Below the pieces are notes generated by a model. That model was not told the origin of the DNA. It did not search any database and saw only the letters and a list, made by a program, of their open reading frames with translations. A stretch of DNA of 64,000 nt, taken from assembly GCA_964057225.1 (NCBI GenBank), contig OZ059899.1, positions 10,602,001-10,666,000 on the forward strand, given 5' to 3'. Below, piece by piece: positions 34,986-62,372 of the stretch. The stretch is from Auanema rhodensis. Taxonomy: Eukaryota > Animalia > Nematoda. A program made the position numbers and the translations under genes. How positions within the stretch are numbered: the first letter of the stretch is position 1; every line of letters begins with the position of its first letter.

Positions 34986-36343
34986 TAAATTTTTTTCATT
35001 TCACTTGTCATTCACAAAAATCAAATTTATCTTCTTCAACGATTATTTTTGCAATGTTTCATAAAAATTTCACAGTTGAACAAAACGTTTTTTAAGAATT
35101 TTTTTTGTTGTCAACATATATATTTTCCTGGAATTCGAAAGCATTTGGGATGGAAATTAGAAAGAAAAGAACTAGTTTTTCCTATTTTAAAACAAACAAA
35201 AAAAAATAAAATGAAAAAGATTGTTAGATATCCAATTTAAACTTATACATTTACTTCGATAAAGAGCCTATTAGTTTGAAATTTTATGTCTTACAGTTCT
35301 CCAACAGAACAGACTGATCCTGATTTCTCTATGATTACATAAAACTCTCGTTTGATATAAAAAAAGAAGAGGAATAACGTTTCCAGGATGTCAATGATAT
35401 CGAATCTAGTGATATTGTAGAAAAATGTAATGTCAGCTCCATAGGTTTTCTCTTAATTTCTCTCATCACAATTGTCTTAGTTTTTTTTCTCATAAGAGTT
35501 TTCGAAATCTTAGGTGAACAAGGCCGTATATATTTTTTTCTGGAATTCGAAAGCATTTGGGATGGAAATTAGAAAGAAAAGAACTAGTTTTTCCTACTTT
35601 AAAACAAACAATAAGAAATAAAATAAAAAAGATTGTTAGATATTCAATTTAAACTTATACATTTACTTCGATAAAGAGCCTATTAGTTTGAAATTTTATG
35701 TCTTACAGTTCTCCAACAGAACAGACTGATCCTGATTTCTCTATGATTACATAAAACTCTCGTTTGATATAAAAAAAGAAGAGGAATAACGTTTCCAGGA
35801 TGTCAATGATATCGAATCTAGTGATATTGTAGAAAAATGTAATGTCAGCTCCATAGGTTTTCTCTTAATTTCTCTCATCACAATTGTCTTAGTTTTTTTT
35901 CTCATAAGAGTTTCTGAAATCTTAGGTGAACAAGGCCGTATATATTTTTTTCTGGAATTCGAAAGCATTTGGGATGGATATTAGAAGAAAAAGAACTAGT
36001 TTTTCCTACTTTAAAACAAACAATAAGAAATAAAATAAAAAAGATTGTTAGATATCCAATTTAAACTTATACATTTACTTCGATAAAGAGCCTATTAGTT
36101 TGAAATTTCATGTCTTACAGTTCTCCAACAGAACAGACTGATCCTGATTTCTCTATGATTACATAAAACTCTCGTTTGATATACAAAAAGGAGAGGAATA
36201 ACGTTTCCAGGATATCAATGATATCGAATCTAGTGATATTGTAGAAAAATGTAATGTCAGCTCCATAGTTTTTCTCTTAATTTCTCTCATCACAATAGTC
36301 TTAGTTTTTTCTCATAAGAGTTTCTGAAATCTTAGTTGAACAA

Positions 36344-36416
36344 GGCCGCGTGGCGCAATGGATAACGCGTCTGCCTACGGAGCAGAAGATTGTAGGTTCG
36401 AATCCTGTCGTGGTCG
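36344..36416 (+). tRNA. trnR-ACG: tRNA-Arg(ACG), T-stem variant (CCTGT)
   Basis: Same allele as 18547. Confidence 0.9.
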
Positions 36417-37362
36417 TAAATTTTTTTCATTTCACTTGTCATTTACAAAAATCAAATTTATCTTCTTCAACGATTATTTTTGCAATGTGTCATAAAAATT
36501 TCACAGTTGAACGAAACGTTTTTTAAGAATTTTTTTTGTTGTCAACATATATATTTTCCTGGAATTCGAAAGCATTTGGGATGGAAATTAGAAAGAAAAG
36601 AACTAGTTTTTCCTACTTTAAAACAAACAATAAGAAATAAAATGAAAAAGATTGTTAGAAATCTAATTTAAACTTATACATTTACTTTAATAAAGAGCCT
36701 ATTAGATTGAAATTTTATGTCTTACAGTTCTCCAACAGAACAGACTGATCCTGATTTCTCTATAATCACATAAAACTCTCGTTTGATATAAAAAAAGAAG
36801 AGGAATAACGTTTCCAGGATGTCAATGATATCGAATCTAGTGATATTGTAGAAAAATATAATGTCAGCTCCATAGGTTTTCTTTTAATTTCTCTCATCAC
36901 AATTGTCTTAGTTTTTTTTCTCATAAGAGTTTCTGAAATCTTAGGTGTACAAGGCCGTATATATTTTCCTGGAATTCGAAAGCATTTGGGATGGAAATTA
37001 GAAAGAAAAGAACTAGTTTTTCCTACTTTAAAACAAATAATAAGAAATAAAATGAAAAAGATTGTTAGATATCTAATTTAAACTTATACATTTACTTCGA
37101 TAAAAAGCCTATTAGATTGAAATTTTATGTCTTACAGTTCTCCAACAGAACAGACTGATCCTGATTTCTCTATGCTTACATAAAACTCTCGTTTGATATA
37201 AAAAAAGAAGAGGAATAACGTTTCCAGGATGTCAATGATATCGAATCTAGTGATATTGTAGAAAAATGTAATGTCAGCTCCATAGGTTTTCTATTAATTT
37301 CTCTCATCACAATTGTCTTAGTTTTTTTTCTCATAAGAGTTTCTGAAATCTTAGTTGAACAA

Positions 37363-37435
37363 GGCCGCGTGGCGCAATGGATAACGCGTCTGCCTACGGA
37401 GCAGAAGATTGTAGGTTCGAATCCTACCGTGTTCG
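37363..37435 (+). tRNA. trnR-ACG: tRNA-Arg(ACG), edge allele (fully Watson-Crick T-stem CCTAC; C3-U70 acceptor mismatch)
   Basis: 3' half reads GTAGGTTCGAATCCTACCGTGTTCG. Confidence 0.8.
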
Positions 37436-37810
37436 TAAATTTTTTCATTTCACTTGTCATTCACAAAAATCTAATTTATCTTCTTCAACGATTATTTTTG
37501 CACTGTGTTATAAGAATTTCACAGTTGAACAGAACGTTTTTTAAGAAGTTTTTTTGTTGTCAACATATATATTTTCCTGGAATTCGAAAGCATTTGGGAT
37601 GGAAATTAGAAAGAAAAGAACTAGTTTTTCCTACTTTAAAACAAACAATAAAAACTAAAATGAAAAAGATTGTTAGATATCCAATTTAAACTTATACATT
37701 TACTTTGATAAAGAGCCTATTAGATTGAAATTTTATGTCTTACAGTTCTCCAACAGAACAGACTGATCCTGATTTCTCTATAATTACATAAAACTCTCGT
37801 TTGATATACA

Positions 37811-38951
37811 TAGCTAGTGTCCTTAGTATCCATGCTGTAATTGATTCTCCTATGTATCCAAAGAAATTTGTGATTTGTTTCTCCGCGTTGTTTGATATGT
37901 TATCTGCTATCATTAATGTCGTTCCAACTGTTCCTCCTATAATTCCTATTGGATTCAGATTGGATAGTCCAGAATGTTTGAAGACTGGTTTCAATTTTCC
38001 TGGCATAGTTGCTTGTAAAGATGCTAGGCTGGAGCCGTAGGAAATAGCCAGTGCCATTGGAAATGTTGACTCCGTGAGGTTTGAAAATATGTTGGAATTG
38101 TTAAACTTAATGTGATCAATTTTTACAGATGTGAGTTCATCCGAAAATGAGAAGTTAGTCACATTCAATGTTGAATTATCTTTCATCCATTGATTGTTTC
38201 TCTGTAGGGATCTGATGTAGCCATATCGCATGCTATGATGTGGGCATATGGTGTTAAATCTCTTGATCCTGGTATGATGAAGAGTTTTCCGTGATGTTCC
38301 GTGTCTACCGGTGTCTCCAGGTAACATTTATCGTCTCGTTTGTGATCCGAGTATACACGTGTTACTTGTGCAGGGGTGCATGGCATGACGTAAATAAGAT
38401 GTTCTCCAACAAACTTTGCTGAAATATCCTGTCGACGAAGCATAGTGCGAATTCCTATAGTCGGATTAATCTGCAGGATAGCCCACCAGGTAAGTAGCTG
38501 CTTATTTTGCATTCTGCATACGCTTTTTTTTGTTATTTGGAAAGATTGTAAGATTTCCTCCTCTAGTTTTGACGTAGAGTATTGGAGGTGGGACCTTGTA
38601 TCTTGTTGGCGTAGTTGATCGTCGTATTTTTGAATGATATCTGCTCGTGTTCGTAGGAAATTGAGGTGTGCTTGTGATCCAGTGTGAGATTTGATTTCCT
38701 CAATCGGTTGGGTCGTTGTTGCTCGCTTTGTAGTAGTCCGAGTTGTTGGAAGTGTCCTAGTAGATTCCCTGCGGGATGTGGTGGTGAGAGGACGTGGTGG
38801 TGGAGTTACTGGAGTTGTTGTACTCTGGTAATAATAATATCTCCTTGGTGTAGTTGTAGGTTGAGGTGGAGACGTCCGATGAGTAGTAGTTGTCGGGGCA
38901 GTTGTTGTGGTAGTCGATGTAGTGGTTGTGGTGGTTGTAGTAGGGGTGGTT
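37811..38951 (-). pseudogene. env: env-like glycoprotein, C-terminal part (copy B): Thr-rich linker plus gB-like domain III/IV, truncated just before the TM
   Basis: Contains SHLQYSTSKLEEEILQSFQITKKSVCRMQNKQLLTWWAILQINPTIGIRTMLRRQDISAKFVGEHLIYVMPC. There is a 1-nt deletion near 38197 relative to copy A, and it ends at WILRTLA fused to satellite. Confidence 0.8.
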
Positions 38952-40568
38952 GTGAAAACGGACGCTGGGGCTTCTTGTGCGATCTCTGTGCCTGTTATGT
39001 GGTCCATATGAAGTGCTGCGATTTCGTTGTTGAAATCCGCGATCAGGACAGTTTCCGCAGTTGTATCGGTCGTTTCCTCTGTGCTCCTGTCGATCATTCC
39101 TTTTGCTATCATATCGATCGTTTCCTCTGCTGTTGTATCGATCATTGTATCTATCGTACCGTTGGGGGCTACGATAATTGTTGTATCCTCGTTGATATCC
39201 ATTGTTTCTGTTATCCTGTCTGAAGTTGTGACGGTTATTTTGTCGATCCTCTTGGTATCTTGGTGAGCGGTATCCTCCTCTTCTTTGATTCCATTGCTCT
39301 TGTGGGTGTTGTGGTCTTGATTGATTTCCATAGAATGTTCTGGATTGGTGTGTTTGTGGTCCGTCATAGATTTTCTCCTGTTGTGATGCTCTCATGTGGT
39401 TTATGAGACCGTTTTTAATCTCTAGTTGTTCCACGTCTTTAATCAAGTTGTTGACCAAGAGCGAAGGATCCTCGTCAGCTTCCACAGTTTCGGCAATAGT
39501 CACGGCTGCATCAAATGTGATAGGGCTGCGGTTATTGACATGTGTTCTTAAATTCTTTCGTAGTCCTCCTAAGAATGAAACTCGTAGTATTTTTTCATCG
39601 GCTGTCGAGTCCATGTTGCATGATTCGTAGGCAAGGTTTCTGCAGCGTTGAGCGAAATTTTGTACTGTTTCGTGCTCTCCTTGTTTCAAATGAGTGAGTT
39701 TTGTGAATGCTGCATCTCTCTTTTCTGGAGGTTGTAATTTCTCCGATAGTATGCGTTTGACATGGTTCCATCCCTGGCGTAAGTCTTCTGCTGGTATAGT
39801 TCGAAGAGCTTCAGCGGCTCTATCCGTTCCGAGAAGTAGATAGAGATGGGAAAGCCTCTCGGCAATAGGGACTTGAAGGGCATCGAAATATCCTTCTAGT
39901 CTTTGCATGTAGAGGTTGAATGGAACCGATCCATCATAAAGCGTAGGTTTGTGATGGCGAATAGAAACGTTGTGGGCTCTTGCAATAGGAGAGTTGTCTT
40001 GCTCCATCTGCTCTGCCATTTGAGGGCGACTTCTCTGCTCTGTAACATTCGAAGTCAAATTTACGTTATTGTCTGACGAAGAAGAGACAGGAGACAGAGA
40101 GTGCCCGTGCAAAGATTGATCAGTGGAAGAGGGAGAGTTTCTAGGAATAGGAGAGGTGAGGATTTCCGCATTTGCGGTTTGAACAAGGCGTTGAGGAGAA
40201 GTGTGATTTGGAGGACAAGTGTTAGTGCCGGTATTAACAACTGTTTTTGGAGAGTGAGAAGAGCGTTTGGGCGTAGATTTACTGGATGATGTTTTATTCT
40301 TATTCAAGCTAATTGCATGCCTAGTAGTTTTAATAGCAGTAGTATAAAGTTTCTTAGCAGTTAGCGGTGTACCCGGAATAGGGGGTAATTTCTTTGATTT
40401 CGCGTTCGTTTTCGGATATTTCGCATCTGGTCGGAATGCATCCGGTGGTCCTCTTTTTCTTTGGTTTCTATGCAGTGTTGCTTCCACTGTCTGAGTTTTC
40501 TCTGCGCTATTCGTAGCATTTTGGGCAATATTTCCCGGCGGAGGATTTTGATTCGCTGCGTCAGCCAT
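38952..40568 (-). CDS. gag: Gag (copy B, with native ATG); capsid domain plus R/N/D/Y-rich tail, fused out of frame to env by a deletion
   Basis: KPTLYDGSVPFNLYMQRLEGYF…LTHLKQGEHETVQNFAQRCRNLA…FLGGLRKNLR…PITFDAAVTIAETVE is a retrotransposon Gag capsid pattern. No CCHC knuckle seen. Confidence 0.88.
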
Positions 40569-41677
40569 CTTTGTTGGTTTCCTGGAAGGAAATTATTAAC
40601 CAACGAAGACTGAGCTTATATTATACAAAACGTAAGAGACAATATGGGGTTGGTATGCGCGACTCCTGTTCCTGTCAGGGGGCCAGCCTGCAGCGGGTCT
40701 CTAGTCGGAGAATAGCCTGGTCAGGTTCATACACGAGTCCGCAACTACGTGTGACCTTTAGCAAAGGACCAAGTTCTTATCTCTCGAAGAGGCATGAGAT
40801 ATGAGACAGTGGTCTGTGTATTGCTCCTTTTCAGTCATGGACAAGATCAGGTACACAGGCTTCTCATACTCACTTTTCCAGACTTCTCTTACCTAAGCAA
40901 ACCCCCAAAAGACGTTCCCTTTTAACGTTACTTCTGTTCCCCTGGGTCTTGCTAGGTGGGACCACTCAACTTCAAAATATTCTTTAATTCTCATATGGGA
41001 CCAAAAAGGGTTAATTTCAGATGATTGCGCGTCTTATATCAAAAAGTGTACGCCTCCGCGCGATGTCCCGAGAATGTCTGGTATTGTTTCTTACGGGGCT
41101 TTCTCATAAAAATGCGTTAGATATCAAGAATAGTGGTTTTGTTTATGAATCAATGTTTTCAGAATGATTTATGAATAGGTATTTTCAAAATTAGCTTGTG
41201 ATAAGATGTTTTCAAGATGATTTATGGGTAAGTGTTGCGATATGAATAAATGTCTTTAAGATATTTCATGAATTGATAGTTTTTTAATATTATTCGTGGT
41301 TAAATATTTTGATATGCTTGTTCCAAAAAGAGTTTTCATGCATTATATGCTTTTAACATACAGGAAAGTAGAGGAATAAAGTAGGAATATAGATTGTAAT
41401 AGATAATATGTATAAGACATTTTTTTCAAATAGATATATCAGAAATGATGTTAGAAAAATAATATTTAGAGATAAATTCGAATTACTAGATTAAATTGAA
41501 GTTTTTTTTTAGATACAAAATTGACTTGAAAGTTTGAAATATAAAATTAAATTAGAATTTTGGATATGAAATCAAGATGAATTTTTAGAGTAGAAATAGA
41601 TTTCAAAGAAAGAGAAAGTAATTTAAAGGTAAGAAAAGTAGCGGCAATGGTCCATAGAGATTCGTCCCTTATAGACG

Positions 41678-41696
41678 AATCTCGGTGGAACCTCCA
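41678..41696 (-). promoter_or_regulatory. Primer-binding site complementary to the tRNA-Gln 3' end
   Basis: Minus strand TGGAGGTTCCACCGAGATT directly after the LTR; the plus strand AATCTCGGTGGAACCTCCA equals the conserved 3' end (with CCA) of animal tRNA-Gln as I recall it. Confidence 0.9.
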
Positions 41697-42036
41697 CGTT
41701 CCATATTGGTTCCTAGGGTTCCAGCTAGGTAACCATATGGACTTTAATAGTGTGAATGCCATTGTAAAAGTAACAGAGAGTAGAGAAAAAGAAGTTTATT
41801 CAGAATATGGAAATACAACTATAAAAGCAAAAATACAATAATCAAATAAATGAAACTACATGTTATGAGAAAGCCAACCTAGTTGCTTTCTCAGGGGTTT
41901 ATATGACAAAATATTAATTACAAATATAATTGAATTTATACAAAAAGTAGTTCAGGTCTAGTTTCTTATTGAATTCTATTAACCAAAAGTCGGTTGACGT
42001 TGTCAACCGCCTTCTTTATAAGACACGTATGGAACA
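41697..42036 (-). repeat. Long terminal repeat (340 bp), shared between the two tandem copies
   Basis: Minus strand begins TGTTCCATA and ends TATGGAACG (9-nt terminal inverted repeat, last base not the canonical A). It contains TATAAA (~41898-41903) and AATAAA (~41795-41800) and abuts the PBS. There is no second LTR in the window to confirm the boundaries. Confidence 0.82.
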
Positions 42037-42255
42037 TGCCTTATATTGAAAAAGTAGCTGACCTCAGCTATAAGAAATTAGACCTTTTAAGAAAAAGAAA
42101 CAAAAGAGAAAAATATATATATGAATGAATTAGAATTAGAATACTAGAATAGGAATAATAGTGTAATAGGAATAATATAAAAAAAAATGAAAACAATATA
42201 AAAAGAAAAAGAAAAGAAAAGAAAAGAAAAACTATGAATTCACCTCGTGCAGCTG

Positions 42256-42883
42256 TTATCCTTCTTCCTCCTCGATTTGTCCCAGCTGGAAGTCGGTCAC
42301 GGGTTGCCGGTCGGCGACCGTCCATATGTGGAACAGGCTGACGTCTGTCAGCAGTTCCGTCGCCTGGACTGCTATCATCATTTTCTTTCTTTTCTGGTCC
42401 GGAGTGGTGGCGCGCGTCGCCATTAGTATCCTTAAGGCCTGGCTGATCAGGTCTCCCGCCTTCCTAATCGACTGGTTGGTCGATTCCATCATACTTTCTT
42501 CTGTCCAGCTCTTGTGGATCTCTTCCGCGGCCCATCTTGGGATGAGATCCGCGCTAGCTACATTTTCGGAGGCTGGATAGCCTAGTTCTTCGCGTAGTTT
42601 GTTGATGGTGGCCTTGGTGCGGGTAGTGGCCTCGGACCAGTTTTGCGCCATTTTGGCCATCTCTTCTTCATCATTGTTACATGAACATTGTAACCTTTCC
42701 AGAGTCTTTATTAATAGAGTAACTCTGGCTAAATTCTTCGAAAATGATTCTTATCTTTTTAGTACGGTTGTTTGTTGTCTCCAGTTGTTGTAGTTCTATC
42801 TGGAGCGAATGTATCTTGATCCATTTTTCCTTGATCATCGCAATAGGTGTCTCGCAGGCTGGTGGAGGGAAGACGAGTGCCAT
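42256..42883 (-). pseudogene. Accessory ORF 3' of pol (~200 aa, helical/coiled-coil-like, one frameshift near 42755)
   Basis: MALVFPPPACETP…TTNNRTKK overlaps an open frame ESFSKNLARVTLLIKTLERLQCSCNNDEEEMAKMAQNW…EEEEG*. It is a GC-richer island between AT-rich spacers, inside the element. Confidence 0.55.
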
Positions 42884-43107
42884 TCTTGTGGTGCTGGGAG
42901 TTTTTCTGCTTGAGGTGAATTTCGAGCTTATATAGGGTGAAAAAAATAGGTAAGTATATATTTTGTGATATATAGATATTAAGATTGATGATTGGGGAAA
43001 ACATTGTTTTTGTTGTTTGGGTAGCAGATAGAATGAATTATTGTAAATTAATAAAAAAAAAAAAATTAATGAATAAAGTTATTTTCTCAAAAAGTTTCTA
43101 TTTTTGA

Positions 43108-46100
43108 TTAAATGGTTGTTTTTGCTCCAATCACTGTTGAAGGTCGTTTCTTTCGTACAACTGGTGTTTTTGGTGAGTTGAAATGAGCATCAGGTATCTG
43201 AGAGCGTGTGAGCCTGTTTTTAGACTCTAAGGTGGGTATCACACTGTTGTACCTTATTGGTACGTGAAATGGTTTTGGAGCGGTTATAGGATTTTTGTCT
43301 TCTATTCCAAGTGCCAACTTGAGGGCTGAGCTCCATCTTTTGTTTGTAGGTATCTCTTTACGTTTTTCTTCATAGAGCTCTTTTCTTGTCTCTTCTCCAA
43401 TTTTATCGACAAGTTGTTGAAATAAGTTGTTTTCGTCCTTGTCCGTAGCTGACTTGTCTGTCGTATTCGGTCCGGTTTCTGCTTGGTAATTGTCCTGTTG
43501 TGTTTCCCGCGTAATTTCCTGTGGTGCTCTTGTTTCTTGTGGTGTTATTGAAAGTCGGCTTTGTTCGTAGAATTCGTCCACGATGTCGCTTTCTGAATCA
43601 GAGATTGATGTTGTGGTGGACGTGCTATTTTTAGCGCGCGTATTTTCCGTATCCTGCTGTGAGCCGTCGCTATAAATGGCGGGTGCGGAGTCGTTTCTGT
43701 TGTGCTCGCTTTCTTCGACGTTGTTATCGTCGGGTGGAAAGTATCTTATATTATTCTTGTGAGCTATAATCGTATTCCCTTCGCTATCTGCTAATATTAC
43801 GTTATTTCCTTTTATTTCCTTGATTATATATGGTCCATCGCTTGTTGTTTGTAATTTATTTGCTGGCTTTGCTCGCTTGACGAGTGCTCTATTTTCCACG
43901 AAGATCTCTCTTTCCTGCGTCCTGTGTTTTTCGTCGTATTTCTTCTTCATTCTTTCATTATTCAACTCAATCCTTTCATGAATCTTCTCGTGTAAGTCCG
44001 GGGCGTTCTTGATTGTGGCTCCTGGGGTTTCTAAGTCCTTATCTATTGGTAACCAAGCTGTTTGTCCAAACAGACAATCGTAGGGTGGTGTGCGAGTAGT
44101 AGCGTTTGGTAGTCGATTCATCGTAAAAACAATTTTTGGTAGAATGATATCCCAATTGTCTTGATCGTCATTAACGTAGGAAGTTAATGCTTCTTCCAGT
44201 GTTCTGTGTAGCCGTTCCACTTGACCATTTGCGTTTTTGTAGTATGGCATAGTTGTGTGATGTTCCGATCCAAGATCATCACACATGTTTTTGAATTCCT
44301 TTGAAACAAAATTTGCTCCATTGTCTGTGATGATTTTCTTGGGGGGTCCAAAAACATAGAACAAGTGTGTCTTAATAGCCGCTATTATTTCTTCTGATGT
44401 TTGACGAATGAGCGGTATCGCTATGATCCATTTTGAAAAAGCGTCTTGTATTGATAAAATGTATATTTTATCATTTGCGGTCCGAGGTAGTGGTCCAAGT
44501 ATATCCATGTGAACCCTTTCCCATGGATGGGTTACTGTTGGAAAATTTCTCATTGGCTCAACAGTGGCTTCGTGTGGGTTGTTTTTCCTCTTTGCACAGT
44601 CGAGACATCTGTTGACGTATTGTGTGATGTCGTCCTGTATTCCGGTCCAAGTATACCGCCGCAAAATGGAATCTTGAGTCTTATTGATTCCTAGATGCGC
44701 TCCGAGAATTGGGTCCTTATGAAATTTTTCTATAATTGGTGTTGTGATTGCTGGATCGTTTGGTAGAATGGCTCGCGGAGTTTGTAAAGCTGTTTTGGGC
44801 TTTGCATACAGAGCGTCGTTCACAACGATATATCGATCCATTAGTTGCCTTCCTGCTGTTTTGTTCCGAATTTTTTTTTTTGTTTCCATGATCCATTCTG
44901 TATTGCCTTGAATGGTCCAAAGGTCCGTAATAGTTGAAATAGTCGAGATTTTGTGCGTAGGAGATTCTTTTGGTTTTTTCTTTCTTTCCTTGGCTTCGTT
45001 GACTTCGTCTTCAAAATATCGTGAAAGTGCATCATCAAAGGTACATTTCTTAAGCTTGATTTTTAATCCTAGCTCTGCTGATGCGTTCAGTACTTCGTCG
45101 ATATCTTGTAAATGTTTCGTCGTTGATTCCGATATGAGAAGTAGATCGTCGAGATAGACGAAGAGCTTGCATCGTACGTGTTGTTGTAAATATCGTACAG
45201 CATTTTGGAATGTGTGTGGAGCTCCGCAGAGTCCCATCGGCATTCTGCAGTATTGATAAGTTCCGCTCGTAGTAGTGAATGCGGTGAGGTGTCTATCTTC
45301 TGATCTAAGAGGGATTTGAAAGAATCCAGATACTAGATCAAAGTTACTGAAGATACGCGCTCCGGCTGCTAGGTCCAAGATGTCTTGAATGTTAGATATA
45401 ACGTAGATTTGTTTTTGCGTTATTGCGTTGAGTGCTCGAAAATCAGTCACAAATCTGTACGTTTTATCCTTTTTCTTGACCAATATTACGGGACTGGTAG
45501 TCATAGAAAAAGATGGCTCAATTATTCCTTGTTCTAACATTTCCTCCACTTGTTTTTCTACTTCTTCTTGTTGTGATAGAGGTATTCTGTACGTGATCTT
45601 GAAAGATGGAACTTTTCCTTCGATGATCGGGATGCTATGTTCCACTGGTCCATTGAAAAGTCCAATATTGCGATCCTCGTTTAAGAAAGCTTCCTTGTTT
45701 CTGAGCACTATTTTCTTTAACTGTTGTCTCTCTAGCTGAGTAAAGATGGTGTTTGTTACATCGAGGTCTTTTATAAAGTCCTCTGGGAAGTATGGTAGTT
45801 GATCTTCCCATCTTGCTTCTGGTGGCACATATTGTCCTTTTTGCTCCTCCGTGTTTCTCGGGATAGCGTAAGCTGTTCCAATGCCTTGATTTGTCTGTAC
45901 TACAATTGTGTCTGGAGAGATATTTGTAGCAAATATCTGAACTCCATATCCCGTTGGGGTGAAAGTAGGGGCGAAACTCATTTTTCCTGTCCGCTGTGAG
46001 CTTCTAATGAAAACTTGTTCGTAAGAGGCGGGATCGTCTACTTCCAATGTAAGCGATCTGGTTTCTCCTGGGTAGAACTGTTTAGTTTCCAGGCTTACGA

Positions 46101-46917
46101 CGTGTGCTATCGTGTGGTTTTCAGTCCATGGCGCGTAGTCTTGTGCTAAAGGTACTATTGTGTCTCCAATTAGTAGTGAATTTTGTAGTGGTCGTAAGGA
46201 AGTATTTATTCCTATTTTGTTGAGAGCTTCTATAAAGTCTATTCCTAATAGTATTGGTGCTGGGCAGTGGTTGTTGGCAGAAATCAGTACTTTGTGCTCG
46301 ATTTCTGTCTTCCCGATAATAATTGGGATTCTTGTGTAGCCCAGGAAAGAAAATCGTGATTTGTTTGCTACAATGGCTGTTGTCTTTTCCATAACCATTG
46401 TTGCTGCCGGTAGTTGTTGAAATGTACTTTCCTTCATATATGATATAGAAGCTCCTGTGTCCCATAAAGCAGTAAAGATCTGATTGTGAATGGAGAGAGG
46501 TATGAAAGGTAGTCGTGATCCTCCGATGTAGTTAATCCTTGATTCTTTCATAGCGTACCGTGGTAGATAGGCGAAAAAGTCATTATCTGATAGTGGGGCG
46601 TCGGGGTGGTATCGAGAGGTTCTTGTATATAATTTCTCTTGTTGAGAAGTGACTAGTGGTTTTAATTCGAATTGTTTGTCCTCTCCTCTTGGTTCTTCGT
46701 CTTGTTCGTTGAATGTAATTTGATTGATTGGTATCCTTGTGGTACATGCATATATTTTTAATGCCCAAATGGTAACAGTTATGAGTCCTATTGTGACGAT
46801 GATTGCTCCAATAATAGCTAGTGTCCTTAGTATCCATGCTGTAATTGATTCTCCTATGTATCCAAAGAAATTTGTGATTTGTTTCTCCGCGTTGTTTGAT
46901 ATGTTATCTGCTATCAT
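43108..46917 (-). CDS. pol: Env C-terminus (TM) fused in frame to Pol: aspartic protease, reverse transcriptase, integrase; RT thumb and RNase H deleted
   Basis: TM LAIIGAIIVTIGLITVTIWAL; protease ALWDTGAS; RT SPVILVKKKD…DFRALN…FDLVSGFFQI…MPMGL…YLDDLL; integrase H-x7-H…CLDC, VHMDILGP, ITDNGANF, NGQVER, GPY. KKCTF is joined directly to DDALSR. Confidence 0.95.
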   Translation of the reverse strand: MIADNISNNAEKQITNFFGYIGESITAWILRTLAIIGAIIVTIGLITVTIWALKIYACTTRIPINQITFNEQDEEPRGEDKQFELKPLVTSQQEKLYTRTSRYHPDAPLSDNDFFAYLPRYAMKESRINYIGGSRLPFIPLSIHNQIFTALWDTGASISYMKESTFQQLPAATMVMEKTTAIVANKSRFSFLGYTRIPIIIGKTEIEHKVLISANNHCPAPILLGIDFIEALNKIGINTSLRPLQNSLLIGDTIVPLAQDYAPWTENHTIAHVVSLETKQFYPGETRSLTLEVDDPASYEQVFIRSSQRTGKMSFAPTFTPTGYGVQIFATNISPDTIVVQTNQGIGTAYAIPRNTEEQKGQYVPPEARWEDQLPYFPEDFIKDLDVTNTIFTQLERQQLKKIVLRNKEAFLNEDRNIGLFNGPVEHSIPIIEGKVPSFKITYRIPLSQQEEVEKQVEEMLEQGIIEPSFSMTTSPVILVKKKDKTYRFVTDFRALNAITQKQIYVISNIQDILDLAAGARIFSNFDLVSGFFQIPLRSEDRHLTAFTTTSGTYQYCRMPMGLCGAPHTFQNAVRYLQQHVRCKLFVYLDDLLLISESTTKHLQDIDEVLNASAELGLKIKLKKCTFDDALSRYFEDEVNEAKERKKKPKESPTHKISTISTITDLWTIQGNTEWIMETKKKIRNKTAGRQLMDRYIVVNDALYAKPKTALQTPRAILPNDPAITTPIIEKFHKDPILGAHLGINKTQDSILRRYTWTGIQDDITQYVNRCLDCAKRKNNPHEATVEPMRNFPTVTHPWERVHMDILGPLPRTANDKIYILSIQDAFSKWIIAIPLIRQTSEEIIAAIKTHLFYVFGPPKKIITDNGANFVSKEFKNMCDDLGSEHHTTMPYYKNANGQVERLHRTLEEALTSYVNDDQDNWDIILPKIVFTMNRLPNATTRTPPYDCLFGQTAWLPIDKDLETPGATIKNAPDLHEKIHERIELNNERMKKKYDEKHRTQEREIFVENRALVKRAKPANKLQTTSDGPYIIKEIKGNNVILADSEGNTIIAHKNNIRYFPPDDNNVEESEHNRNDSAPAIYSDGSQQDTENTRAKNSTSTTTSISDSESDIVDEFYEQSRLSITPQETRAPQEITRETQQDNYQAETGPNTTDKSATDKDENNLFQQLVDKIGEETRKELYEEKRKEIPTNKRWSSALKLALGIEDKNPITAPKPFHVPIRYNSVIPTLESKNRLTRSQIPDAHFNSPKTPVVRKKRPSTVIGAKTTI

Positions 46918-48075
46918 TAATGTCGTTCCAACTGTTCCTCCTATAATTCCTATTGGATTCAGATTGGATAGTCCAGAATGTTTGAAGACGCCATTGGAAA
47001 TGTTGACTCCGTGAGGTTTGAAAATATGTTGGAATTGTTAAACTTAATGTGATCAATTTTTACAGATGTGAGTTCATCCGAAAATGAGAAGTTAGTCACA
47101 TTCAATGTTGAATTATCTTTCATCCATTGATTGTTTTCTCTGTAGGGATCTGATGTAGCCATATCGCATGCTATGATGTGGGCAAATGGTGTTAAATCTC
47201 TTGATCCTGGTGTGATGAAGAGTTTTCCGTGATGTTCCGTGTCTACCGGTGTCTCCAGGTAACATTTATCGTCTCGTTTGTGATCCGAGTATACACGTGT
47301 TACTTGTACAGGGGTGCATGGCATGACGTAAATAAGATGTTCTCCAACAAACTTTGCTGAAATATCCTGTCGATGAAGCATAGTGCGAATTCCTATAGTT
47401 GGATTAATCTGCAGGATTGCCCACCAGGTAAGTAGCTGCTTATTTTGCATTCTGCATACGTTTTTCTTTGTTATTTGGAAAGATTGTAAGATTTCCTCTT
47501 CTAGTTTTGACGTAGAGTATTGGAGGTGGGACCTTGTATCTTGTTGGCGTAGTTGATCGTCGTATTTTTGAATGATATCTGCTCGTGTTCGTAGGAAATT
47601 GAGGTGTGCTTGTGATCCAGTGTGAGATTTGATTTCCTCAATCGGTTGGGTCGTTGTTGCTCGCTTTGTAGTAGTCCGAGTTGTTGGAAGTGTCCTAGTA
47701 GATTCCCTGCGGGATGTGGTGGTGAGAGGACGTGGTGGTGGAGTTACTGGTGTTGTTGTACTCTGGTAATAATAATATCTCCTTGGTGTAGTTGTAGGTT
47801 GAGGTGGAGACGTCCGATGAGTAGTAGTTGTCGGGGCAGTTGATGTGGTAGTCGATGTAGTGGTTGTGGTGGTTGTAGTAGTGGTTTTTGTATGCATAGT
47901 CTGAGCAGGTGGTTGGGCGAGGTGGTTCGAGGAAAATACCTCCTCGTTTGCCAATGCAGAGTTGATAGTTGTCTGCCTGGCAAGGTATCATAGATAGGGC
48001 GATGACGGATAAGAATAGCGGTATGAACGGAAGTGTCTTCTTTGTTTTGACTGTTTCCTTTTCTACTTTGTTAAC
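46918..48075 (-). pseudogene. env: env-like class III fusion glycoprotein (copy A): internal signal peptide, N-terminal Cys motif, Thr-rich linker, gB-like domain III/IV; two frameshifting deletions
   Basis: In frame with gag: …SVRFHVNKVEKETVKTKKTLPFIPLFLSVIALSMIPCQA-DNYQLCIGKRGGIFLEPPRPTTCSD. The frame changes at ~47885, and there is a 67-bp deletion at 46989/46990 relative to copy B (37986-38052). Confidence 0.82.
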
Positions 48076-49311
48076 GTGAAAACGGACGCTGGGGCTTCTT
48101 GTGCGATCTCTGTGCCTGTTATGTGGTCCATATGAAGTGCTGCGATTTCGTTGTTGAAATCCGCGATCAGGACAGTTTCCGCGGTTGTATCGGTCGTTTC
48201 CTCTGTGCTCCTGCCAATCATTCCTTCTGCTATCATATCAATCGTTTCCTCTGCTGTTGTATCGATCATTGTATCTATCGTACCGTTGGGGGCTACGATA
48301 ATTGTTGTGTCCTCGTTGATATCCATTGTTTCTGTTATCCTGTCTGAAGTTGTGACGGTTATTTTGTCGATCCTCTTGGTATCTTGGTGAGCGGTATCCT
48401 CCTCTTCTTTGATTCCATTGCTCTTGTGGGTGTTGTGGTCTTGATTGATTTCCATAGAATGTTCTGGATTGGTGTGTTTGTGGTCCGTCATAGATTTTTT
48501 CCTGTTGTGATGCTCTCATGTGGTTTATGAGACCGTTTTTAATCTCTAGTTGTTCCACGTCTTTAATCAAGTTGTTGACCAAGAGCGAAGGATCCTCGTC
48601 AGCTTCCACAGTTTCGGCAATAGTCACGGCTGCATCAAATGTGATAGGGCTGCGGTTATTGACATGTGTTCTTAAATTCTTTCGTAGTCCTCCTAAGAAT
48701 GAAACTCGTAGTATTTTTTCATCGGCTGTCGAGTCCATGTTGCATGATTCGTAGGCAAGGTTTCTGCAGCGTTGAGCGAAATTTTGTACCGTTTCGTGCT
48801 CTCCTTGTTTCAAATGAGTGAGTTTTGTGAATGCTGCATCTCTCTTTTCTGGAAGTTGTAATTTCTCCGATAGTATGCGTTTGACGTGGTTCCATCCCTG
48901 GCGTAAGTCTTCTGCTGGTATAGTTCGAAGAGCTTCAGCGGCTCTATCCGTTCCGAGAAGTAGATAGAGATGGGAAAGTCTCTCGGCAATAGGGACTTGA
49001 AGGGCATCGAAATATCCTTCTAGTCTTTGCATGTAGAGGTTGAATGGAACCGATCCATCATAAAGCGTAGGTTTGTGATGGCGAATAGAAACGTTGTGGG
49101 CTCTTGCAATAGGAGAGTTGTCTTGCTCCATCTGCTCTGCCATTTGAGGGCGACTTCTCTGCTCTGTAACATTCGAAGTCAAATTTACGTTATTGTCTGA
49201 CGAAGAAGAGACAGGAGACAGAGAGTGCCCGTGCAAAGATTGATCAGTGGAAGAGGGAGAGTTTCTAGGAATAGGAGAGGTGAGGATTTCCGCATTTGCG
49301 GTTTGAACAAG
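48076..49311 (-). pseudogene. gag: Gag (copy A), 5'-truncated, premature stop at 48238 (CGA>TGA)
   Basis: Near-identical to 38952-40187; homology ends at …gtttgaacaag|actaagata (49311). Confidence 0.88.
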
Positions 49312-49348
49312 ACTAAGATATATAAACTTTATACTATTTTGAAAAACT

Positions 49349-50403
49349 ATGAGTAAGTTTTTAAAACGTTTTAATGAGCCAATGTAAGCTATGAGTTTTC
49401 TCTAAATATTAATGTATCATTATTAGTGACACCGAAGAAATTTTTGATAAAGTACCTCGGATCGATGAGTTTAAGAAGGGTGAATACTTTTTTTTCTTGA
49501 ATAAAAATAAGGTTATAAATTGTGATGATTTGTCTTACGATCCGTATAAACCTTGGACAGGAGAGGGTATTTACTTCAATGATATAATTGTTTTGTCGAC
49601 TTTGTTCATTTCAGATGAGCGTGGTGTTCGTGTTACCGCAAAAAGTACTAACTATTATTTAGTTTTTGTGAATGGCGAGTGGGTGCTTGATAAAACATCA
49701 AAATGTTTCCAAATGAAAGTTATGAAATATGCTCATGCTAGAGCTCCGGGTTTCAGAAGAGAAGTGTTTTATTATTTTTCAATGAATATATTATCGTTTC
49801 CAACTAAGATTGCTTTCGTCTCTGATATGAACAAGAATCTTCTCTCTCACGTATTATTCGTGTATATAGCTGAGGTTAGTTATCTACAGGTACTTAATGA
49901 TGACATTGAATAAAAACCATTTAGAAAGATTTGCAAGCTCCTGAAGAACTATCAAATCGAATTTTACCTTCATCTTCTAAGGCCGTGAAATTGGCACTAC
50001 ATTACAGATCATCTTCGGAAGCTAAAAAACTACTAGCTTCAAATGGAGTTTCCGTCACTTCCGCAAAGGTAAACATTTTTTATCAAAAAAAAAAAAATAT
50101 ATATATATATATCCCATGGCTTAAATTATTGCATTCATCTTCAATGGAAACTAATATTTGTAATCTTTCAGATTTCTAGTTTATCTCGCTCAGTAGAAAC
50201 TCATGTTAAAAGTAATATAGGAAGAAAACCTCCATCTAATTATTATAAGATAATGGACAGATATTTGCTTAAACATCATCTAGAAGAAAGACTAGAAAAA
50301 CCCTATATAGAGGTCAATGGTAAGTTTTTATTTTTTTTTGTTTTGTGATGTCTATTCCAGAAAGTGGAAAAATAGTGCTACGTATTTTGATGGGATATCC
50401 ATC
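49349..50403 (+). pseudogene. Spliced gene fragment of unknown function (possibly the N-terminus of a DNA-transposon protein), interrupted at its 3' end
   Basis: ATG at 49349 and successive open exons (…DLSYDPYKPW…YAHARAPGFRREVFYY…VLFVYIAE / KDLQAPEELSNRILP… / ISSLSRSVETH…) separated by GT…AG introns. Confidence 0.5.
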
Positions 50404-50443
50404 AGTAGAGAGCCATGCCGAATTTACTAACCACGCCCCCAAA

Positions 50444-50579
50444 CAGTTGCTAAAAACATACTTTTGAGGGCGTCAGCTGCTAAAAACATACTTTTGGGAG
50501 CGTCAGCTGTCAAAATCATATTTTCGGCGTCAGCTGTCAAAAATATACTTTTCCTCCCGAGGCAGGCTCTCGAGCCTGC
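50444..50579. repeat. Four ~27-30-bp direct repeats plus a GC hairpin (putative subterminal/TIR repeats)
   Basis: CAG(T/C)TG-ctaaaaacatacttttg…gcgt x4, then GCAGGCTC-tc-GAGCCTGC (50562-50579). Confidence 0.75.
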
Positions 50580-50947
50580 GCATGGATCAAAATGCATGAT
50601 TTTTTTTTAAAATCATTTTTAAAATTATTTTTTAATGTATTTTTAAATGAATTTTTATTATTTATATATTTGTTAATTGTATTTGTAAATATTTTTAAAA
50701 TTGTTTCTTTTTAAATATATTTTTAATATTTATATATGTTTTAAATATTATTATTTAATTATTTCTTTTTAAATATATTTTATATATTTTTAAAATATTA
50801 TTAAAATTATCTCCTTTTAAATGTATTTTTAATATTTATACATTTGAATAAACTTTTTAATATATATTGTTTTTGTTTTAATTTATAAAATTTGAATATA
50901 TATAAAAGCTAATTAATATGTTCACCGTACCTCTTATGGGTTAATCA

Positions 50948-51930
50948 ATGGAACTCATATCGAAGGTTAATTCGATAAGTTATATTTTATATATTTATTT
51001 TTTAATTTTATTTGTTTACATTGTTTATAGATTGTGTTTATTATAGTTTATAATTATTAATTTAATTTTTAAAAAGTTTGTTGTTTATCTAGGCGAACCA
51101 TTTTGTTCACCGTACCTCTTATAGGTAAATCAATGGAACACATATCGAAAGTTAATTCGATAAGAACGATATGGAATACAAAAGTTAATGGAACACATAT
51201 CGAAGGTTAATTCGATAAGATCGTTAAAACAGGTGCACTGACCCACACAAGAACCACATGGCAAACGTTTTGTTCATAAAAATATGATAAATAGCTGTAC
51301 ACCACAAGTACTAAGTTGTCTAATATTTTCAAATTACATGAAAGAATAGTTTAAAGAACCTTTTTTTTTAATTTTATATTAATATATTCTAATATACTAA
51401 CTCAATAAAACACATATCGAAGGTTAATTCGATAGGATTCACAAACAATTGTGTTGTTTCCAATGGAACACATATCGAAGATTAATTCGATAAGATCGTT
51501 AAAACAGGTGCGCTGACCCACACATGTACCACATGGCAAAAGTTTTGTTCATAAAAATATGATAAATAGCTGTACAGCACAAGTACCCATAACGCTAAAG
51601 AATACTTACTATGCCAAGGGGTCATGGGTATATACTTTTCAAATATCAAAAATGTTAATGGAACACATATCGAATATAAATTCGATAAGATTGGTGAAAC
51701 AGATACGTTGACCTACAATGAACCAAATAGCAAAGCACTTGTTCATTAAAGTATAACAAATAGCTGTATAGCATATGCATCAAGATTTCTAATATTCTCA
51801 AATTACGTGGAAAGAAGAGTATATAGAAAAAGTTTTAGTGTGTATATTACTAATATTCTAATACACTAACTCAATAGAACACATATCGAAGATTAATTCG
51901 ATAAGATTGTTTAAACAGGTGCGCTGACCA
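50948..51930. repeat. Seven copies of the palindromic element TATCGAA-N6-TTCGATA within longer imperfect direct repeats
   Basis: Cores at about 50958, 51143, 51198, 51415, 51473, 51668 and 51884, mostly preceded by aatggaacaca. Confidence 0.9.
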
Positions 51931-51984
51931 CAACAATACATGCGTATTTATTAACAACGGATTGGCAACTGCCACTGTTGACAG

Positions 51985-52623
51985 CTGTAATTAGAGTAGA
52001 GAATCCACTTCTCATCTCCAGTCACTAACCCTTTAAAAAAAACCCTTCTTCGGCTCAAATTCAGAAGATTTTGAGCTGAATCAACTCTTGTTCTGAGATT
52101 GCTCTCAGACAGGAGATGCGGGGAAAATGGAGAAAATTTATGAATTTTCCCCATTTTTTTAAGCCGATGTGAAACAGCAACTCTGCTGACTTTCAGTTTT
52201 TTCCCGATCTGGAGTTGGGTTGCTCCAAGATTCTGATCGAGAGCATTCTGAAGGTCAGAATCACTGAACTTCTGAACGGCACCGGGTCGCAGACGATCTG
52301 CAAGATCGATCTCGCCGGATTTAAAGCGGGCGAACCACTTTTTACATGTGCTGTAGACTGGAGAAGAAACACCACTTTCAAAATGAGAAAGAAGGACGTG
52401 GCGCATATGCGTTACATCCATAACAAAAAACGAGAACAAAATAGAAGCAAAAAAAAAAGTTTTTTAAAGCAAAAAAAAATTAAATTTTTAAACTTTTTTA
52501 AATTTTATTATATTTAAATATATTCAAATTTCGTAATTCATTTAAAAAAATTTTAAATTTTGTAAAATTAGCATAATTTTTTCAAATTCTAACCGGTGGC
52601 CGCGTTTCAACTTACACACCTAA
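51985..52623 (-). mobile_element. mariner (Tc1/mariner) element, 5' half only: one TIR and a truncated transposase
   Basis: Minus strand TA|TTAGGTGTGTAAGTTGAAACGCGG is a mariner-type TIR. ORF 52439-51951 has TCKKWFARFKSGEIDLADRLRPG, a second HTH, FSPHLL (WVPHEL-equivalent) and LVTGDEKWILYSN. No second TIR and no rest of the catalytic domain. Confidence 0.9.
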
Positions 52624-52772
52624 TATGATACAATGTTGAGTGTTGGCAACATTGTTACGTGACAATAAAACAACTGACTGTTCTTGCAATGAAGTGTAAT
52701 ATAAATGTGTAAAATGAAATATGGATAACTAACTAGCTCAGAGTTTGCATAATTTTATTCTAACAAGATACA

Positions 52773-55700
52773 ATGGCTGCTAACAGGTTGTGTTTTTTCC
52801 TATCTTTTTTTTTTTAATTAAAATATTTATTTTCAGTTATAAGCGTGTATGTGAAGAGTTGGGGTTCGATTATGAGGAAATTTATCAACTCAGGTAATTT
52901 AACAATATTTTTAAAATATACATCTTTGTTTTTTTTAGTAAGCGCATAAAGCTTACCGAGAGTGGTGGTGTTGAGCTGTGTGACTCCGCAATAACCACTT
53001 CCAATAGTGGTCCCTCGTCATCAAGGGTTATTGAAGTTATCACCTTGGATGACAGCGATAATGAGTAAGCTATCGTATAATGAAAAAGCATGAAATTTTT
53101 TTTTCAGAGAATGGAATCCCGAGATGCCATCAACTAGTGGAGAACAATTAGGAGGCGGTTCATCCTTCAACGATATTTGTCAAATAAAGGTACGAGCTTT
53201 TAACTTTTTTTTTTTTTCATGTTACAATTCTTTTCACTCTATATCTTTTATTTGATTACATATCTTGAACAATTTTGAATTCTGCCATCTATTTTTAAAC
53301 AAATCATCATACATTTGGAGGCTTTTTGAAAAATAAAATTAAATCTTACCCCAAATCCATGCCATAATATCATTTATTAAATTTTTAATCATTAAAATAC
53401 ACTTAAATTTAAATATTTTGATGCTCAAAAACTGACAATATTTTGTATTTTCTAAACCATTTCACTTCATCTTTTTTATTTAATCCCATATTTTAAACAA
53501 TTTTATAAGTCTACTATTATTTAATTTTTATTTATTAAATTTTTAATCATTAAATTACACTTAAATTTAAATATTTTGATGCGCAAAAACAAAAACAAAA
53601 ACATTTAAATATTTTGTTTTATCTAAACCATTTCACCTCATCTATTTTAAACAATTTTATATTTCTACCACTATTTCATAATTTCATTTTTTAAATTTTT
53701 AATCATAAAAAAAAACATTTAAATTTCAATATTGTGATGCTCAAAAACTGAAACATGAAACAGATTTATATTTTCCAAGCCATTTCACTTCATCTCTTTT
53801 ATTTAATCATATATCTTGAACAAATTTAAATTTCTATCACTTTTTCATAATTTCGTTTATTAAAAAACATTTGAATTTTAATATTGTGATGCTCAAAAAC
53901 TGAAACATTTAAATATTTTGTATTTTTTAAACTGTTTCACTCCATCTCTTTTATTTAATCCCATATTTTAAACAATTTTATAATTCTACTGTTATTTAAT
54001 TTTTATTTATTAAATTTTTAAACATTAAAAAAAAAAATTGATGCTCAAAAACTGAAACGTTTAAATATTTTGTATTTTTCTAATCGTTTTGAAACAAACT
54101 AAACATTTATTTGAAACCATTTCAATTAAATAAAAAATAACGACTATAACAAACAAAGAGACATAATAATTTTAAGCAAAAGATGAAACAATTCATATAT
54201 ATTCTCAAAACTATTTTTATTTAAACTTTAAAAAAAAATAAAAAAAAAAGCATGTAAACTATTATAAATGTTGTTTATTATAGTGGTCACACCGGCGTAT
54301 AAAACGCACCGGTCGTTTTACCAACGTGGTCGTTCGATCGCTCACGTTCCCACACTTGGAAAATGTTGATGAACCAATGCATGTTATCATGCCGCGGTTA
54401 TTCAACGAATTCCTTGATCGTTGTCTTGCTGAAAGCGGTGTGCCTGATAAGCAAAAAGCCTTATTTTGTTTATCAATTGAGCACCCTTCCTTTGAAAAGG
54501 GCTCCATATTTATGGACTTTCGTAGAAAGGAGCATCTGGATGGCGTAGCCATTATGAATGCCATCAGCAAGGTGCAGCAATCAAAACGAGAGGCTGTAAT
54601 CAGCCAGGCAATGAATATTGAGATGTATGTGTTTGATGAAAGGCCAGCGCAGCCAAGCCTGATGCCTGGTGAAGGTAGAGTCGGGTTTTATTTTGACCCC
54701 GAACTCAAAATACCTGGAACCATTGCCAACACTGACTCACATTGTCTGGCTAGATCAGCAGTTGTGGGAATGTGGAAAGCTGACGAGCTGGCCACTGAAG
54801 ATGGCGATGAGAAGCGAAGGCTGCAAAACCTTCGTCGCAATTACATCTTATTGCCAAATCAGCCACACCATATCAATTTATTAAATAGGTGTGGTATTTC
54901 TGTAGATTTACCAAATTATAATTTAATTCATTTAAACATTATTGCCAGCTGTAATACAAACTATAAGTTTGTAGTATATGCTAGACCGCCTGGACAGCGT
55001 ATGTACACTATCCAGAAAATATTTAATGAAGCGGCTAGCAAATTGGTAACACTAGGTTACCGAAATAATCACTATGATTGTATTACAGCTGGTAGTCGTT
55101 CGAAAATTTTTGACGGTATTATATGTCAACACTGTAAGTTATCTTACAATACAGTGTTGCTTAGATGTAAAGCCAAATGTAAAAAATGCCACACCTATAA
55201 TTGTAATGCGATGGGGAATGTGGTTGAGAGTAGCGTGAGGTGTGATAGTTGTAGAGTTTTGTTTAAAACTCAACAATGCTTCGATAGGCATTTGCGAAAA
55301 GCCTGCCGAAAATTCAAGGTATTTTGTGAAAATTTAAAGTTGTACATAACAAGCTTAAATTCAGACATGTGTGGCGTGTGATCACTATCACATGCTCCGT
55401 GCTGATAGACCGCACAATTGCAATGGAAAATTCTGCAAAAAGTGCGGTCAGACAAAGCCTGAAGAGCACTCTTGTTGTTGGGTTCCACCTAACGACAAGA
55501 AGAAGGCTCAACTAAAAAAGAAGCAAGAAAAGTTCAAGGTTTGTATTTAACATCTTTACAAGTGTAATGCTTAATTGTTTAAGATTATATTTTGTGACTT
55601 TGAAACAGTTGTGTTAAAAAACGGCACAAATGTTCATGAATATGCAGATGAACAATGGCCCAATATGGTTGTGTATAACAAATTTTGTGAAAGTTGTATA

Positions 55701-58283: not shown

Positions 58284-58418
58284 TTTTTAATATATTTGAA
58301 TTTATAAATTTTATTATTGCGTGTATATTTGTATATGGTTGTATTTATAGATTTTTAAGTATAGTTGTAATAAATTTTATTCTTCTCATCAAATGTTTTA
58401 AAGAGTTTATTACATACA

Positions 58419-59753: not shown

Positions 59754-60206
59754 TTAAATACGATACGACCGCTCACGAGTTATGCACAGACGCTTATGAG
59801 GTTTTGTGGTTTTGCGTCGTCGCCGCTTGCCCAAACCGGTAAGATCTCGTATAGCCTGCCGGCCGGCTGTTTTAAGAGTTTGCTTGATATTATCGCCCTT
59901 GAGCACCCCATCAACAATTTCATTGCTAGTTTTTAGCAACTGTCCGCCAAGAGGTGAATTTACAACTGGACTATTGCTTACAGCACTGGATAATGCATTC
60001 CTTCCAGCATTGATGAGATTTTGGGCTATAGGTGATTGAATAATGCGAGGTAAAAACGATGCCAAAGTTGCCAGTATACCACCCAGGCCATGACCTCTCT
60101 GCATACCACGTTGAAACATCAGTCCACTAAATGGTGCCCCACCCATTTGTTGATTCAAAAGTGTTGTCCATTGAATAGAGTTCAAGTCTAGAAGGAGGTG
60201 TGGCAT
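59754..60206 (-). CDS. Maverick small conserved virion/core protein (QxGG…QRGHGLGG type, basic C-terminus)
   Basis: QQMGGAPFSGLMFQRGMQRGHGLGGILATLASFL and TGLGKRRRRK; its stop abuts the MCP start (TAAATG). Confidence 0.75.
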   Translation of the reverse strand: MPHLLLDLNSIQWTTLLNQQMGGAPFSGLMFQRGMQRGHGLGGILATLASFLPRIIQSPIAQNLINAGRNALSSAVSNSPVVNSPLGGQLLKTSNEIVDGVLKGDNIKQTLKTAGRQAIRDLTGLGKRRRRKTTKPHKRLCITRERSYRI

Positions 60207-60256
60207 ATTGAACCGCACGTGCGCAATACAAAAGTTACACTAGATCATTTTACTAA

Positions 60257-60707: not shown

Positions 60708-60753
60708 TCAACTTCGCCATTAAAACGTCACCTGCTACATTAGGTGGTCAGTT

Positions 60754-60924: not shown

Positions 60925-60965
60925 AAGTGAGTTGACTGTGTGTGGTTGTTTTTTATTTTCCTCTA

Positions 60966-61430: not shown

Positions 61431-61435
61431 AACAT

Positions 61436-62293: not shown

Positions 62294-62372
62294 CAGAGAC
62301 CACCACCTGATGCGTGCACACTAGTATAAATGAAATCATTTGCATTATAGGTACATTTACGAGTGGTTGATT

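Follow-up and report, generated by a model that had tools for sequence, protein, structure and literature searches.

A broken head-to-tail pair of Ty3/gypsy elements with a gB-type envelope between gag and pol in the nematode Auanema rhodensis

Introduction

In Nematoda, Bryozoa and Platyhelminthes, the envelopes of errantiviruses are exclusively of the herpes simplex virus glycoprotein B (HSV/gB) type, and the gene order is GAG-ENV-POL (Chary and Hayashi, eLife 2026, PMC13524379). As far as the available parts of that paper go, elements with this order are not monophyletic, the envelope ectodomain can have two flanking transmembrane domains, all 36 nematode elements of its supplement 1 are classed as ENV_HSV, and cell entry by gB elements is stated to be unknown. 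The same source credits Sacco et al. 2022 (J Gen Virol 103:1739) for nematode endogenous retroviruses in which env and pol are flipped, through metavirus glycoprotein capture. The subject of the present article is a 64,000-nucleotide stretch of Auanema rhodensis DNA (assembly GCA_964057225.1, contig OZ059899.1, positions 10,602,001 to 10,666,000), referred to as the window, in which two copies (A and B) of one Ty3/gypsy element lie head-to-tail on the minus strand. The locus is very probably a decayed pair of the published GAG-ENV-POL kind with an HSV/gB-type env, intact members of which are likely to encode one polyprotein that is predicted to cross the membrane of the endoplasmic reticulum (ER) twice. 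The work of Sacco and colleagues is said to describe a continuous gag-env-pro-pol open reading frame (ORF) together with small accessory ORFs.

The kind raises the question of how capsid, fusogen and enzymes made from one frame are sorted at the ER membrane, and how a workable Gag:Pol ratio is reached.

Organization of the Two Copies

Pfam matches and ORFs place the parts of the element in the order gag, signal-like segment, gB-type env, transmembrane (TM) helix, protease (PR), reverse transcriptase (RT) and integrase (IN). Copies A and B differ at 23 of 2311 aligned bases (1.0%). Assignment to Ty3/gypsy is based on matches to RVT_1, Retrotrans_gag and Integrase_H2C2 with none to RVT_2, on nearest RTs of nematode gypsy type, and on a long terminal repeat (LTR) with inverted ends and a tRNA primer-binding site (PBS). 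A BEL/Pao identity was rejected: Peptidase_A17 and DUF1758/1759 are absent, and env does not lie behind the integrase.

A preliminary description of this DNA had claimed that this is a Ty3/gypsy element and that a class III, gB-like env separates gag from pol; both the domain order and the env comparison bear this out. It had also traced the gag frame of copy A into a hydrophobic, signal-like segment and then into YQLC. ORF and hydropathy analyses agree, since the frame passes from RTRSPSVRFH (48105) through this segment to YQLC...C (47967) without interruption, although the two cysteines are spaced as C-x16-C and not by the 15 residues given. On the far side of env, the stalk, TM helix, PR, RT and IN of copy A share one frame of 1309 codons (47037-43108), again as described.

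Both copies are damaged. An in-frame stop at 48238-48240 breaks the gag of copy A and is lacking in copy B. The gag-signal frame of copy A stops at 47697, the frame of the Thr-linker and env being a different one, and the gag frame of copy B ends at the same out-of-frame stop. Two frame changes fall within the env of copy A, near 47885-47888 and at 46989/46990. At the latter, copy A is short of 67 nt relative to B, while B is short of 1 nt near 38199 relative to A; these two gaps had been correctly reported, along with the suggestion that the lesions complement one another. Combining A and B, however, does not give a whole element, as env domains I/II in frame and RNase H are missing from both. 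A further 186 nt, including the signal segment and the YQLC motif, are absent from copy B. The distance from YQLC to HLQY in copy A is 146 codons, 85 of them low-complexity linker, compared with 272-555 residues in relatives (15 of 32, where both marks were located). Within pol, PR, RT and IN follow one another in copy A. A gap at 45037/45036 removes ~220 residues (residues 1819 to 2040 of the relative P0002 are skipped), and RNase H, present at this place in relatives, is deleted. Profiles for env domains II/I and for RT thumb-RNase H found no significant match in six frames of 36000-54000, a search in which a control profile recovered both env copies (E 6e-51 and 2e-44).

Neither window copy combines uninterrupted ORFs with a five-domain ectodomain bearing fusion loops, which excludes the two copies, but not their family, as intact elements. 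Domains I-II, on which the cysteine-bridge classes (C1a/d, C2a/c) of Chary and Hayashi are based, are missing from the window. Because both lack fusion loops and RNase H, they cannot on their own carry out the cycle proposed below. The pair likely arose via tandem integration or LTR-LTR recombination; deletions and the expansion of a satellite into copy B would have come later.

The Envelope

Sequence and model comparisons support a gB-type, class III identity for domains III-IV of the window env. The piece matches PF24664 above the cut-off (E 3.6e-17), a single-sequence search of the PDB retrieves gB of Kaposi's sarcoma-associated herpesvirus (KSHV; E 2.6e-5), and a profile built from 62 env sequences retrieves gB chains at E 1.5e-9. 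An AlphaFold model of 47636-46992 (pLDDT 88, pTM 0.60) consists of a 72-residue helix and a beta crown. With this model, all Foldseek matches listed against the PDB are gB proteins of herpesviruses (best E 5.4e-4, prob 1.00), and matches in BFVD are chuvirus-like, rhabdo-like and herpes glycoproteins (best E 5.9e-8). A model of the C. brenneri Gag-Env protein P0073 (pLDDT 71) matches HSV-1 gB along the whole ectodomain, over ~750-840 columns, at E 1.6e-14. The preliminary description had recognized the likeness to gB by eye and had proposed comparing the fold with gB and chuvirus G; sequence and fold searches uphold the likeness to gB, and the fold search extends it to chuvirus-like G.

Hydropathy peaks flank the ectodomain on either side (Table 1). 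Among relatives, a hydrophobic segment precedes the env motif in 23 of 32, as judged by a 15-mer hydropathy of >=1.8 within 45 residues ahead of the motif, which was located in 29 of 32; some misses occurred where the motif pattern fell inside the hydrophobic stretch itself. The window value is 2.24. Conservation of such a segment just before env would fit release of Gag by signal peptidase.

Four relatives (P0073, P0079, P0002 and P0076) have a helical insert of 100-200 residues, not found in herpes gB, between a furin-type site and the Thr/Pro linker.

Relatives and RT Phylogeny

The closest RT relatives of the window are Caenorhabditis proteins with 56-66% identity and env ahead of pol. An RT-IN query against long proteins gave 69 matches, of which 13 were picked for Pfam annotation: the env match precedes pol in 11, env follows the integrase in one (P0056), and the remaining one is without a gB-type env. 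A HMMER scan with env returned 182 cluster representatives, and a word-based search of longer proteins with env residues 110-335 returned nothing at E 0.001. Among the 150 env matches listed, pol domains lie behind env in the same protein in 48, gag lies ahead of it in 27, and both are found in 16; 90 show env only with the gypsy probes, and one was not re-found. Named relatives are nematode proteins, from Caenorhabditis, Auanema, Acrobeloides and Oesophagostomum, in line with a nematode host.

Pfam annotation of 12 picked env matches found seven of BEL/Pao type, in which env comes last, and one in which a helicase precedes env. Thus, the env family spans element types. The C-terminal ends of the BEL/Pao polyproteins P0113, P0148, P0153, P0169, P0189, P0193 and P0208 are members of the env family, and in P0122 the env follows an Upf1-like AAA helicase.

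In a quick RT tree of 61 rows and no outgroup, from which nine of the 69 proteins were omitted (<80% query coverage), the window groups with four Caenorhabditis env-pol proteins, P0002, P0004, P0005 and P0007 (SH-aLRT 99). The enclosing clade comprises eight rows, all with env before pol (SH-aLRT 98), and four further env-pol rows lie outside it. The scatter of env-pol rows agrees with the account of this layout in the available text of PMC13524379. An RT phylogeny had been named in the preliminary description as a check, and it places the window within a clade of this layout.

Single database proteins read Gag-signal-Env-TM-PR-RT-RNase H-IN. Two Logan proteins, P0023 (2338 aa on 7928 nt) and P0139 (2486 aa on 8161 nt), read through as one protein; since they fill most of their short contigs, unspliced frames are favoured, a point that concerns protein sequences and not the DNA. 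The ancestral Gag-SP-Env-TM-PR-RT-RH-IN polyprotein (SP, signal peptide; RH, RNase H) that had been proposed from the window is therefore matched by single proteins of relatives, while the window itself offers neither the single frame nor RNase H. A survey of nematode genomes for single gag-env-pol ORFs had likewise been suggested at that stage; proteins with all domains exist in the databases, and some of the models are chimeric or possibly spliced.

A metagenome contig, L001, contains two tandem gypsy-like units (305-5200 and 5645-10228) of equal ORF layout that are distant from the window element.

Other Copies in Sequencing Runs

The stretch, or part of it, is present in 12 of 14 listed public runs from four studies, and one of the runs may stem from the source sample itself. 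At the gag stop, run contigs differ from copy A in all four runs of one set and in three of four of a second, the fourth (X12) having given no aligned contigs. Contigs of the same runs carry the 67 letters missing at 46989/46990. In X2, X5 and X7, contigs run on into dissimilar sequence to either side of 47885-47888 and of 45034-45036, and the other length differences listed within 44850-48450 come to three letters only. These contigs suggest that the lesions of copy A are not the rule in the family and that other copies carry more sequence at these points; they leave an open frame across the missing parts undemonstrated.

Depth ratios of contigs were used as hints only. The element is ~7 to 40 times as deep as the flank at 49549-49800, a hint of a multi-copy family that does not translate into a copy number.

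The gag contigs are about twice as deep as those of env-pol in DNA runs, and a contig of X1 links 48221 with 42522, with a short side of 26 letters. Together, these two observations hint weakly at a gag-only deletion subfamily. A second joint, 45871-47299, occurs in X2 and X5.

Weighing the Readings

Several points weigh against a family with a single Gag-Env-Pol frame and a gB-type env. The window has no single Gag-Env-Pol ORF, and the one-protein layout is known from proteins of relatives, not from the DNA of an intact copy. Many of these relatives are eukaryotic gene models in which splicing is possible. P0005 and P0007 are evident chimeras, and in P0078 and P0114 the sequence passes from env straight to RNase H. 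A scan of metagenome contigs reduced 29 candidate stretches to one locus with a distant RT/IN match (29%). The RT tree is a quick one without bootstrap, and signal and TM assignments were made from hydropathy alone. With respect to the env, the match to PF00606 (E 7.8e-8) is below the curated cut-off (32.5 of 43 bits), and TM-scores of the fragment to gB are modest (TMq 0.39-0.44).

The gag frames of A and B end at the same out-of-frame stop, and equimolar Gag and Pol are unusual for Ty3/gypsy elements. Both facts would suit a living family in which gag and env are uncoupled, with Gag made in excess over a small amount of Env-Pol because the frame change near 47885 serves as a programmed frameshift or splice point. 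This is very improbable, however, as the change sits where 125-400 env residues are missing relative to relatives, contigs of X1, X2, X4, X5 and X7, as far as listed, carry other sequence on both sides, and a site inside env, behind the signal segment, would not yield free Gag. Moreover, P0023 and P0139 run through this region as one protein on their short contigs. A shortened env, kept on purpose as a non-fusogenic or host-adopted membrane protein with core helix, crown and mucin-like stalk, would explain why domains III-IV are open and well folded (pLDDT 88) in both copies; yet the frame is broken at the junction in both copies, the signal segment is gone from B, and a further frameshift is present in each. 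In addition, relatives keep the full ectodomain, run contigs suggest that most copies in the genome hold a complete env, and the 1% difference between A and B points to young, decaying insertions, so that a retained short env is very hard to credit.

Similarly, the gene order could be an accident of nested insertion or mis-assembly, given that the window is repeat-rich, with a satellite array and a Maverick nearby, and that nematode Mavericks and BEL/Pao elements carry gB-like genes of the sort that could have been acquired from a neighbour. Against this, neither a repeat nor a target duplication flanks env, the gag-signal and TM-protease fusions are in frame, and one X1 contig covers 47773-45829, from env to past the protease. 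The same order recurs in proteins of Caenorhabditis, Oesophagostomum and Acrobeloides, and the env-before-pol relatives and the RT tree largely refute an accidental order, for which the chance is minimal.

Proposed Maturation

If the pair derives from a one-polyprotein GAG-ENV-POL family, as favoured here, Gag would be made in the cytosol, and the internal hydrophobic segment would function as a signal directing Env into the ER lumen, to be cleaved by signal peptidase. The TM helix of Env would then stop transfer, leaving PR-RT-RNase H-IN back in the cytosol to be freed by the aspartic protease of the element. Furin-type sites, found in many relatives, would prime Env, which would be carried as trimers on budding particles that move from cell to cell. 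Internal signals and stop-transfer helices act in this manner in viral polyproteins. Gag, Env and Pol would be made in equal amounts, Gag would be released by signal peptidase, and the particles could be infectious.

A maturation resembling that of flaviviruses and hepaciviruses is a tentative extension, rather less than an even prospect. The internal signal would hold the C-terminus of Gag at the ER until the host peptidase cut, thereby coupling capsid assembly to the packaging of Env and Pol at a single membrane, with no matrix domain involved. Gag-only deletion copies, abundant in this genome on such a reading, could provide the additional Gag missing from a one-ORF element. No paper on signal-peptidase processing of nematode gypsy LTR retrotransposon polyproteins was found, Sacco et al. 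2022 being outside the comparison. The conserved internal signal-like segment makes such processing testable, for which full-length Caenorhabditis relatives are better material than the window.

Features of the Locus and Its Surroundings

The coordinates of the element are collected in Table 1. The 340-bp LTR had been noted previously and is present as described; as the single survivor, it serves as both the 3′ LTR of A and the 5′ LTR of B, and its contig depth is raised in the sequencing runs. The 12-mer of the PBS has one match in the window, compared with a mean of 0.11 in shuffled sequence with <=1 mismatch (11 of 100 shuffles matching). A chance match is unlikely because the site adjoins the LTR end. 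It is the exact complement of the 12-mer given for Clat_4 and Ctro_1 (Caenorhabditis, 'Gln' class) in supplement 1 of PMC13524379. The accessory ORF region 42256-42883 has no Pfam match of weight and no Atlas match.

Table 1. Features of copies A and B, in window coordinates.
Feature	Position	Strand	Evidence and remarks
Gag remnant, copy A	48241..49311	-	ORF; PF03732 E 2.7e-5; 5′-truncated at 49311, where likeness to B stops
Gag C-terminal RG/N-rich part, signal-like segment and env N-terminal motif	47888..48237	-	All in gag frame
Internal signal-like segment	48036-47980	-	Kyte-Doolittle 19-mer 1.98
Env N-terminal motif YQLC-x16-C	47967-47905	-	In gag frame
Junction: env domains II/I missing, frame change	47885..47888	-	Loose ends of run contigs on both sides
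Thr/Pro-rich linker	47637..47888	-	40 Thr in 85 residues; low complexity; also ahead of the core helix in relatives
gB-type env domains III-IV (long core helix, beta crown)	46992..47636	-	PF24664, PF00606, model, Foldseek
67-nt gap of copy A	46989..46990	-	Frame change between env ORF and pol ORF; joints in run contigs
Env membrane-proximal region and TM helix	46768..46989	-	TM 46824-46768, hydropathy 2.5; tblastn with P0002/P0004
Aspartic protease	46222..46509	-	PF00077, PF13975; ALWDTGAS at 46470
RT core	45037..45480	-	PF00078 E 8.7e-30; YLDD at 45156
Integrase and tail to stop	43108..44754	-	PF17921, PF00665; H2C2 zinc finger 44754-44581, core 44532-44239
Small 3′ accessory ORF(s) between pol and LTR	42256..42883	-	Frame change near 42750
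LTR, 340 bp	41697..42036	-	Inverted ends, 9 nt with 1 mismatch
PBS, 12 nt	41685..41696	-	Directly behind LTR
Leader and gag, copy B	38757..41684	-	Leader 1.1 kb; gag ATG 40568
Env remnant, copy B: linker, domains III-IV, stalk	37810..38950	-	412-bp satellite array cuts TM at 37810

Positions 1-37808 of the window are occupied by the 412-bp satellite array, with at least 85 copies and ~29% GC. On the other side of the pair, an ORF at 49413-49913 (+), next to the truncated end of copy A, has a weak match to DUF7747 (E 0.0013) and is perhaps a host exon. A mariner-like transposase remnant follows at 51951-52463 (-; HTH_48, E 1.4e-5). The remainder, 54284-64000, is a broken Maverick/Polinton with pieces of a protein-primed PolB (PF03175), an adenain-like protease (60276-60707) and a 900-nt perfect inverted duplication (54361-55260 / 63101-64000). 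Further ORFs in this region resemble capsid and ATPase genes.

Comparison with Known Systems

The preliminary description had left room for the layout being unpublished. However, the GAG-ENV-POL order with an HSV/gB-type env, including ectodomains between two membrane segments, is in print in the available text of PMC13524379, so the gene order in nematodes is already published and the window holds a further, broken member. Judged from that text, the elements of Chary and Hayashi share with the window the gene order, the gB-type env, an ectodomain between hydrophobic segments, and an LTR with adjacent PBS; the PBS of the window equals that of two of the eight 'Gln'-class Caenorhabditis rows. 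The window copies differ in being deletion derivatives that would fail the intact-element test of that work, and the comparison of their family with its named elements is by description, not by sequence. Its main text does not use the term 'polyprotein'.

Among database proteins, P0002 (C. auriculariae CAD6186088.1) is 66% identical to the window in RT and 47% in integrase, while P0004 (C. remanei CRE_05815) is 62% and 41% identical, respectively. Both of these, along with P0073, P0083 (C. nigoni) and P0104 (Acrobeloides nanus), have Gag-signal-Env-TM(-PR-RT-RNase H-IN) in one protein. Identity in env domains III-IV between the window and the nematode polyprotein relatives is 26-32%, and the relatives keep env domains I/II, a furin-type site and RNase H, whereas the window copies do not. 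The window family is distinct from these relatives.

The occurrence of gB-like genes in the Ascaris BEL/Pao element Tas (PMC9094657) and in nematode Mavericks (bioRxiv 10.1101/2022.07.12.499685), which the preliminary description had cited, holds in the available text of both sources. Tas and the Maverick fusogen MFUS-1 have the same class III gB-like fold as that assigned to the window env. Their env lies behind the integrase or forms a separate gene, in contrast to the window element, in which env stands between gag and pol and BEL/Pao domains are absent. The A. rhodensis locus thus adds one more family, in broken form, to the published GAG-ENV-POL kind.

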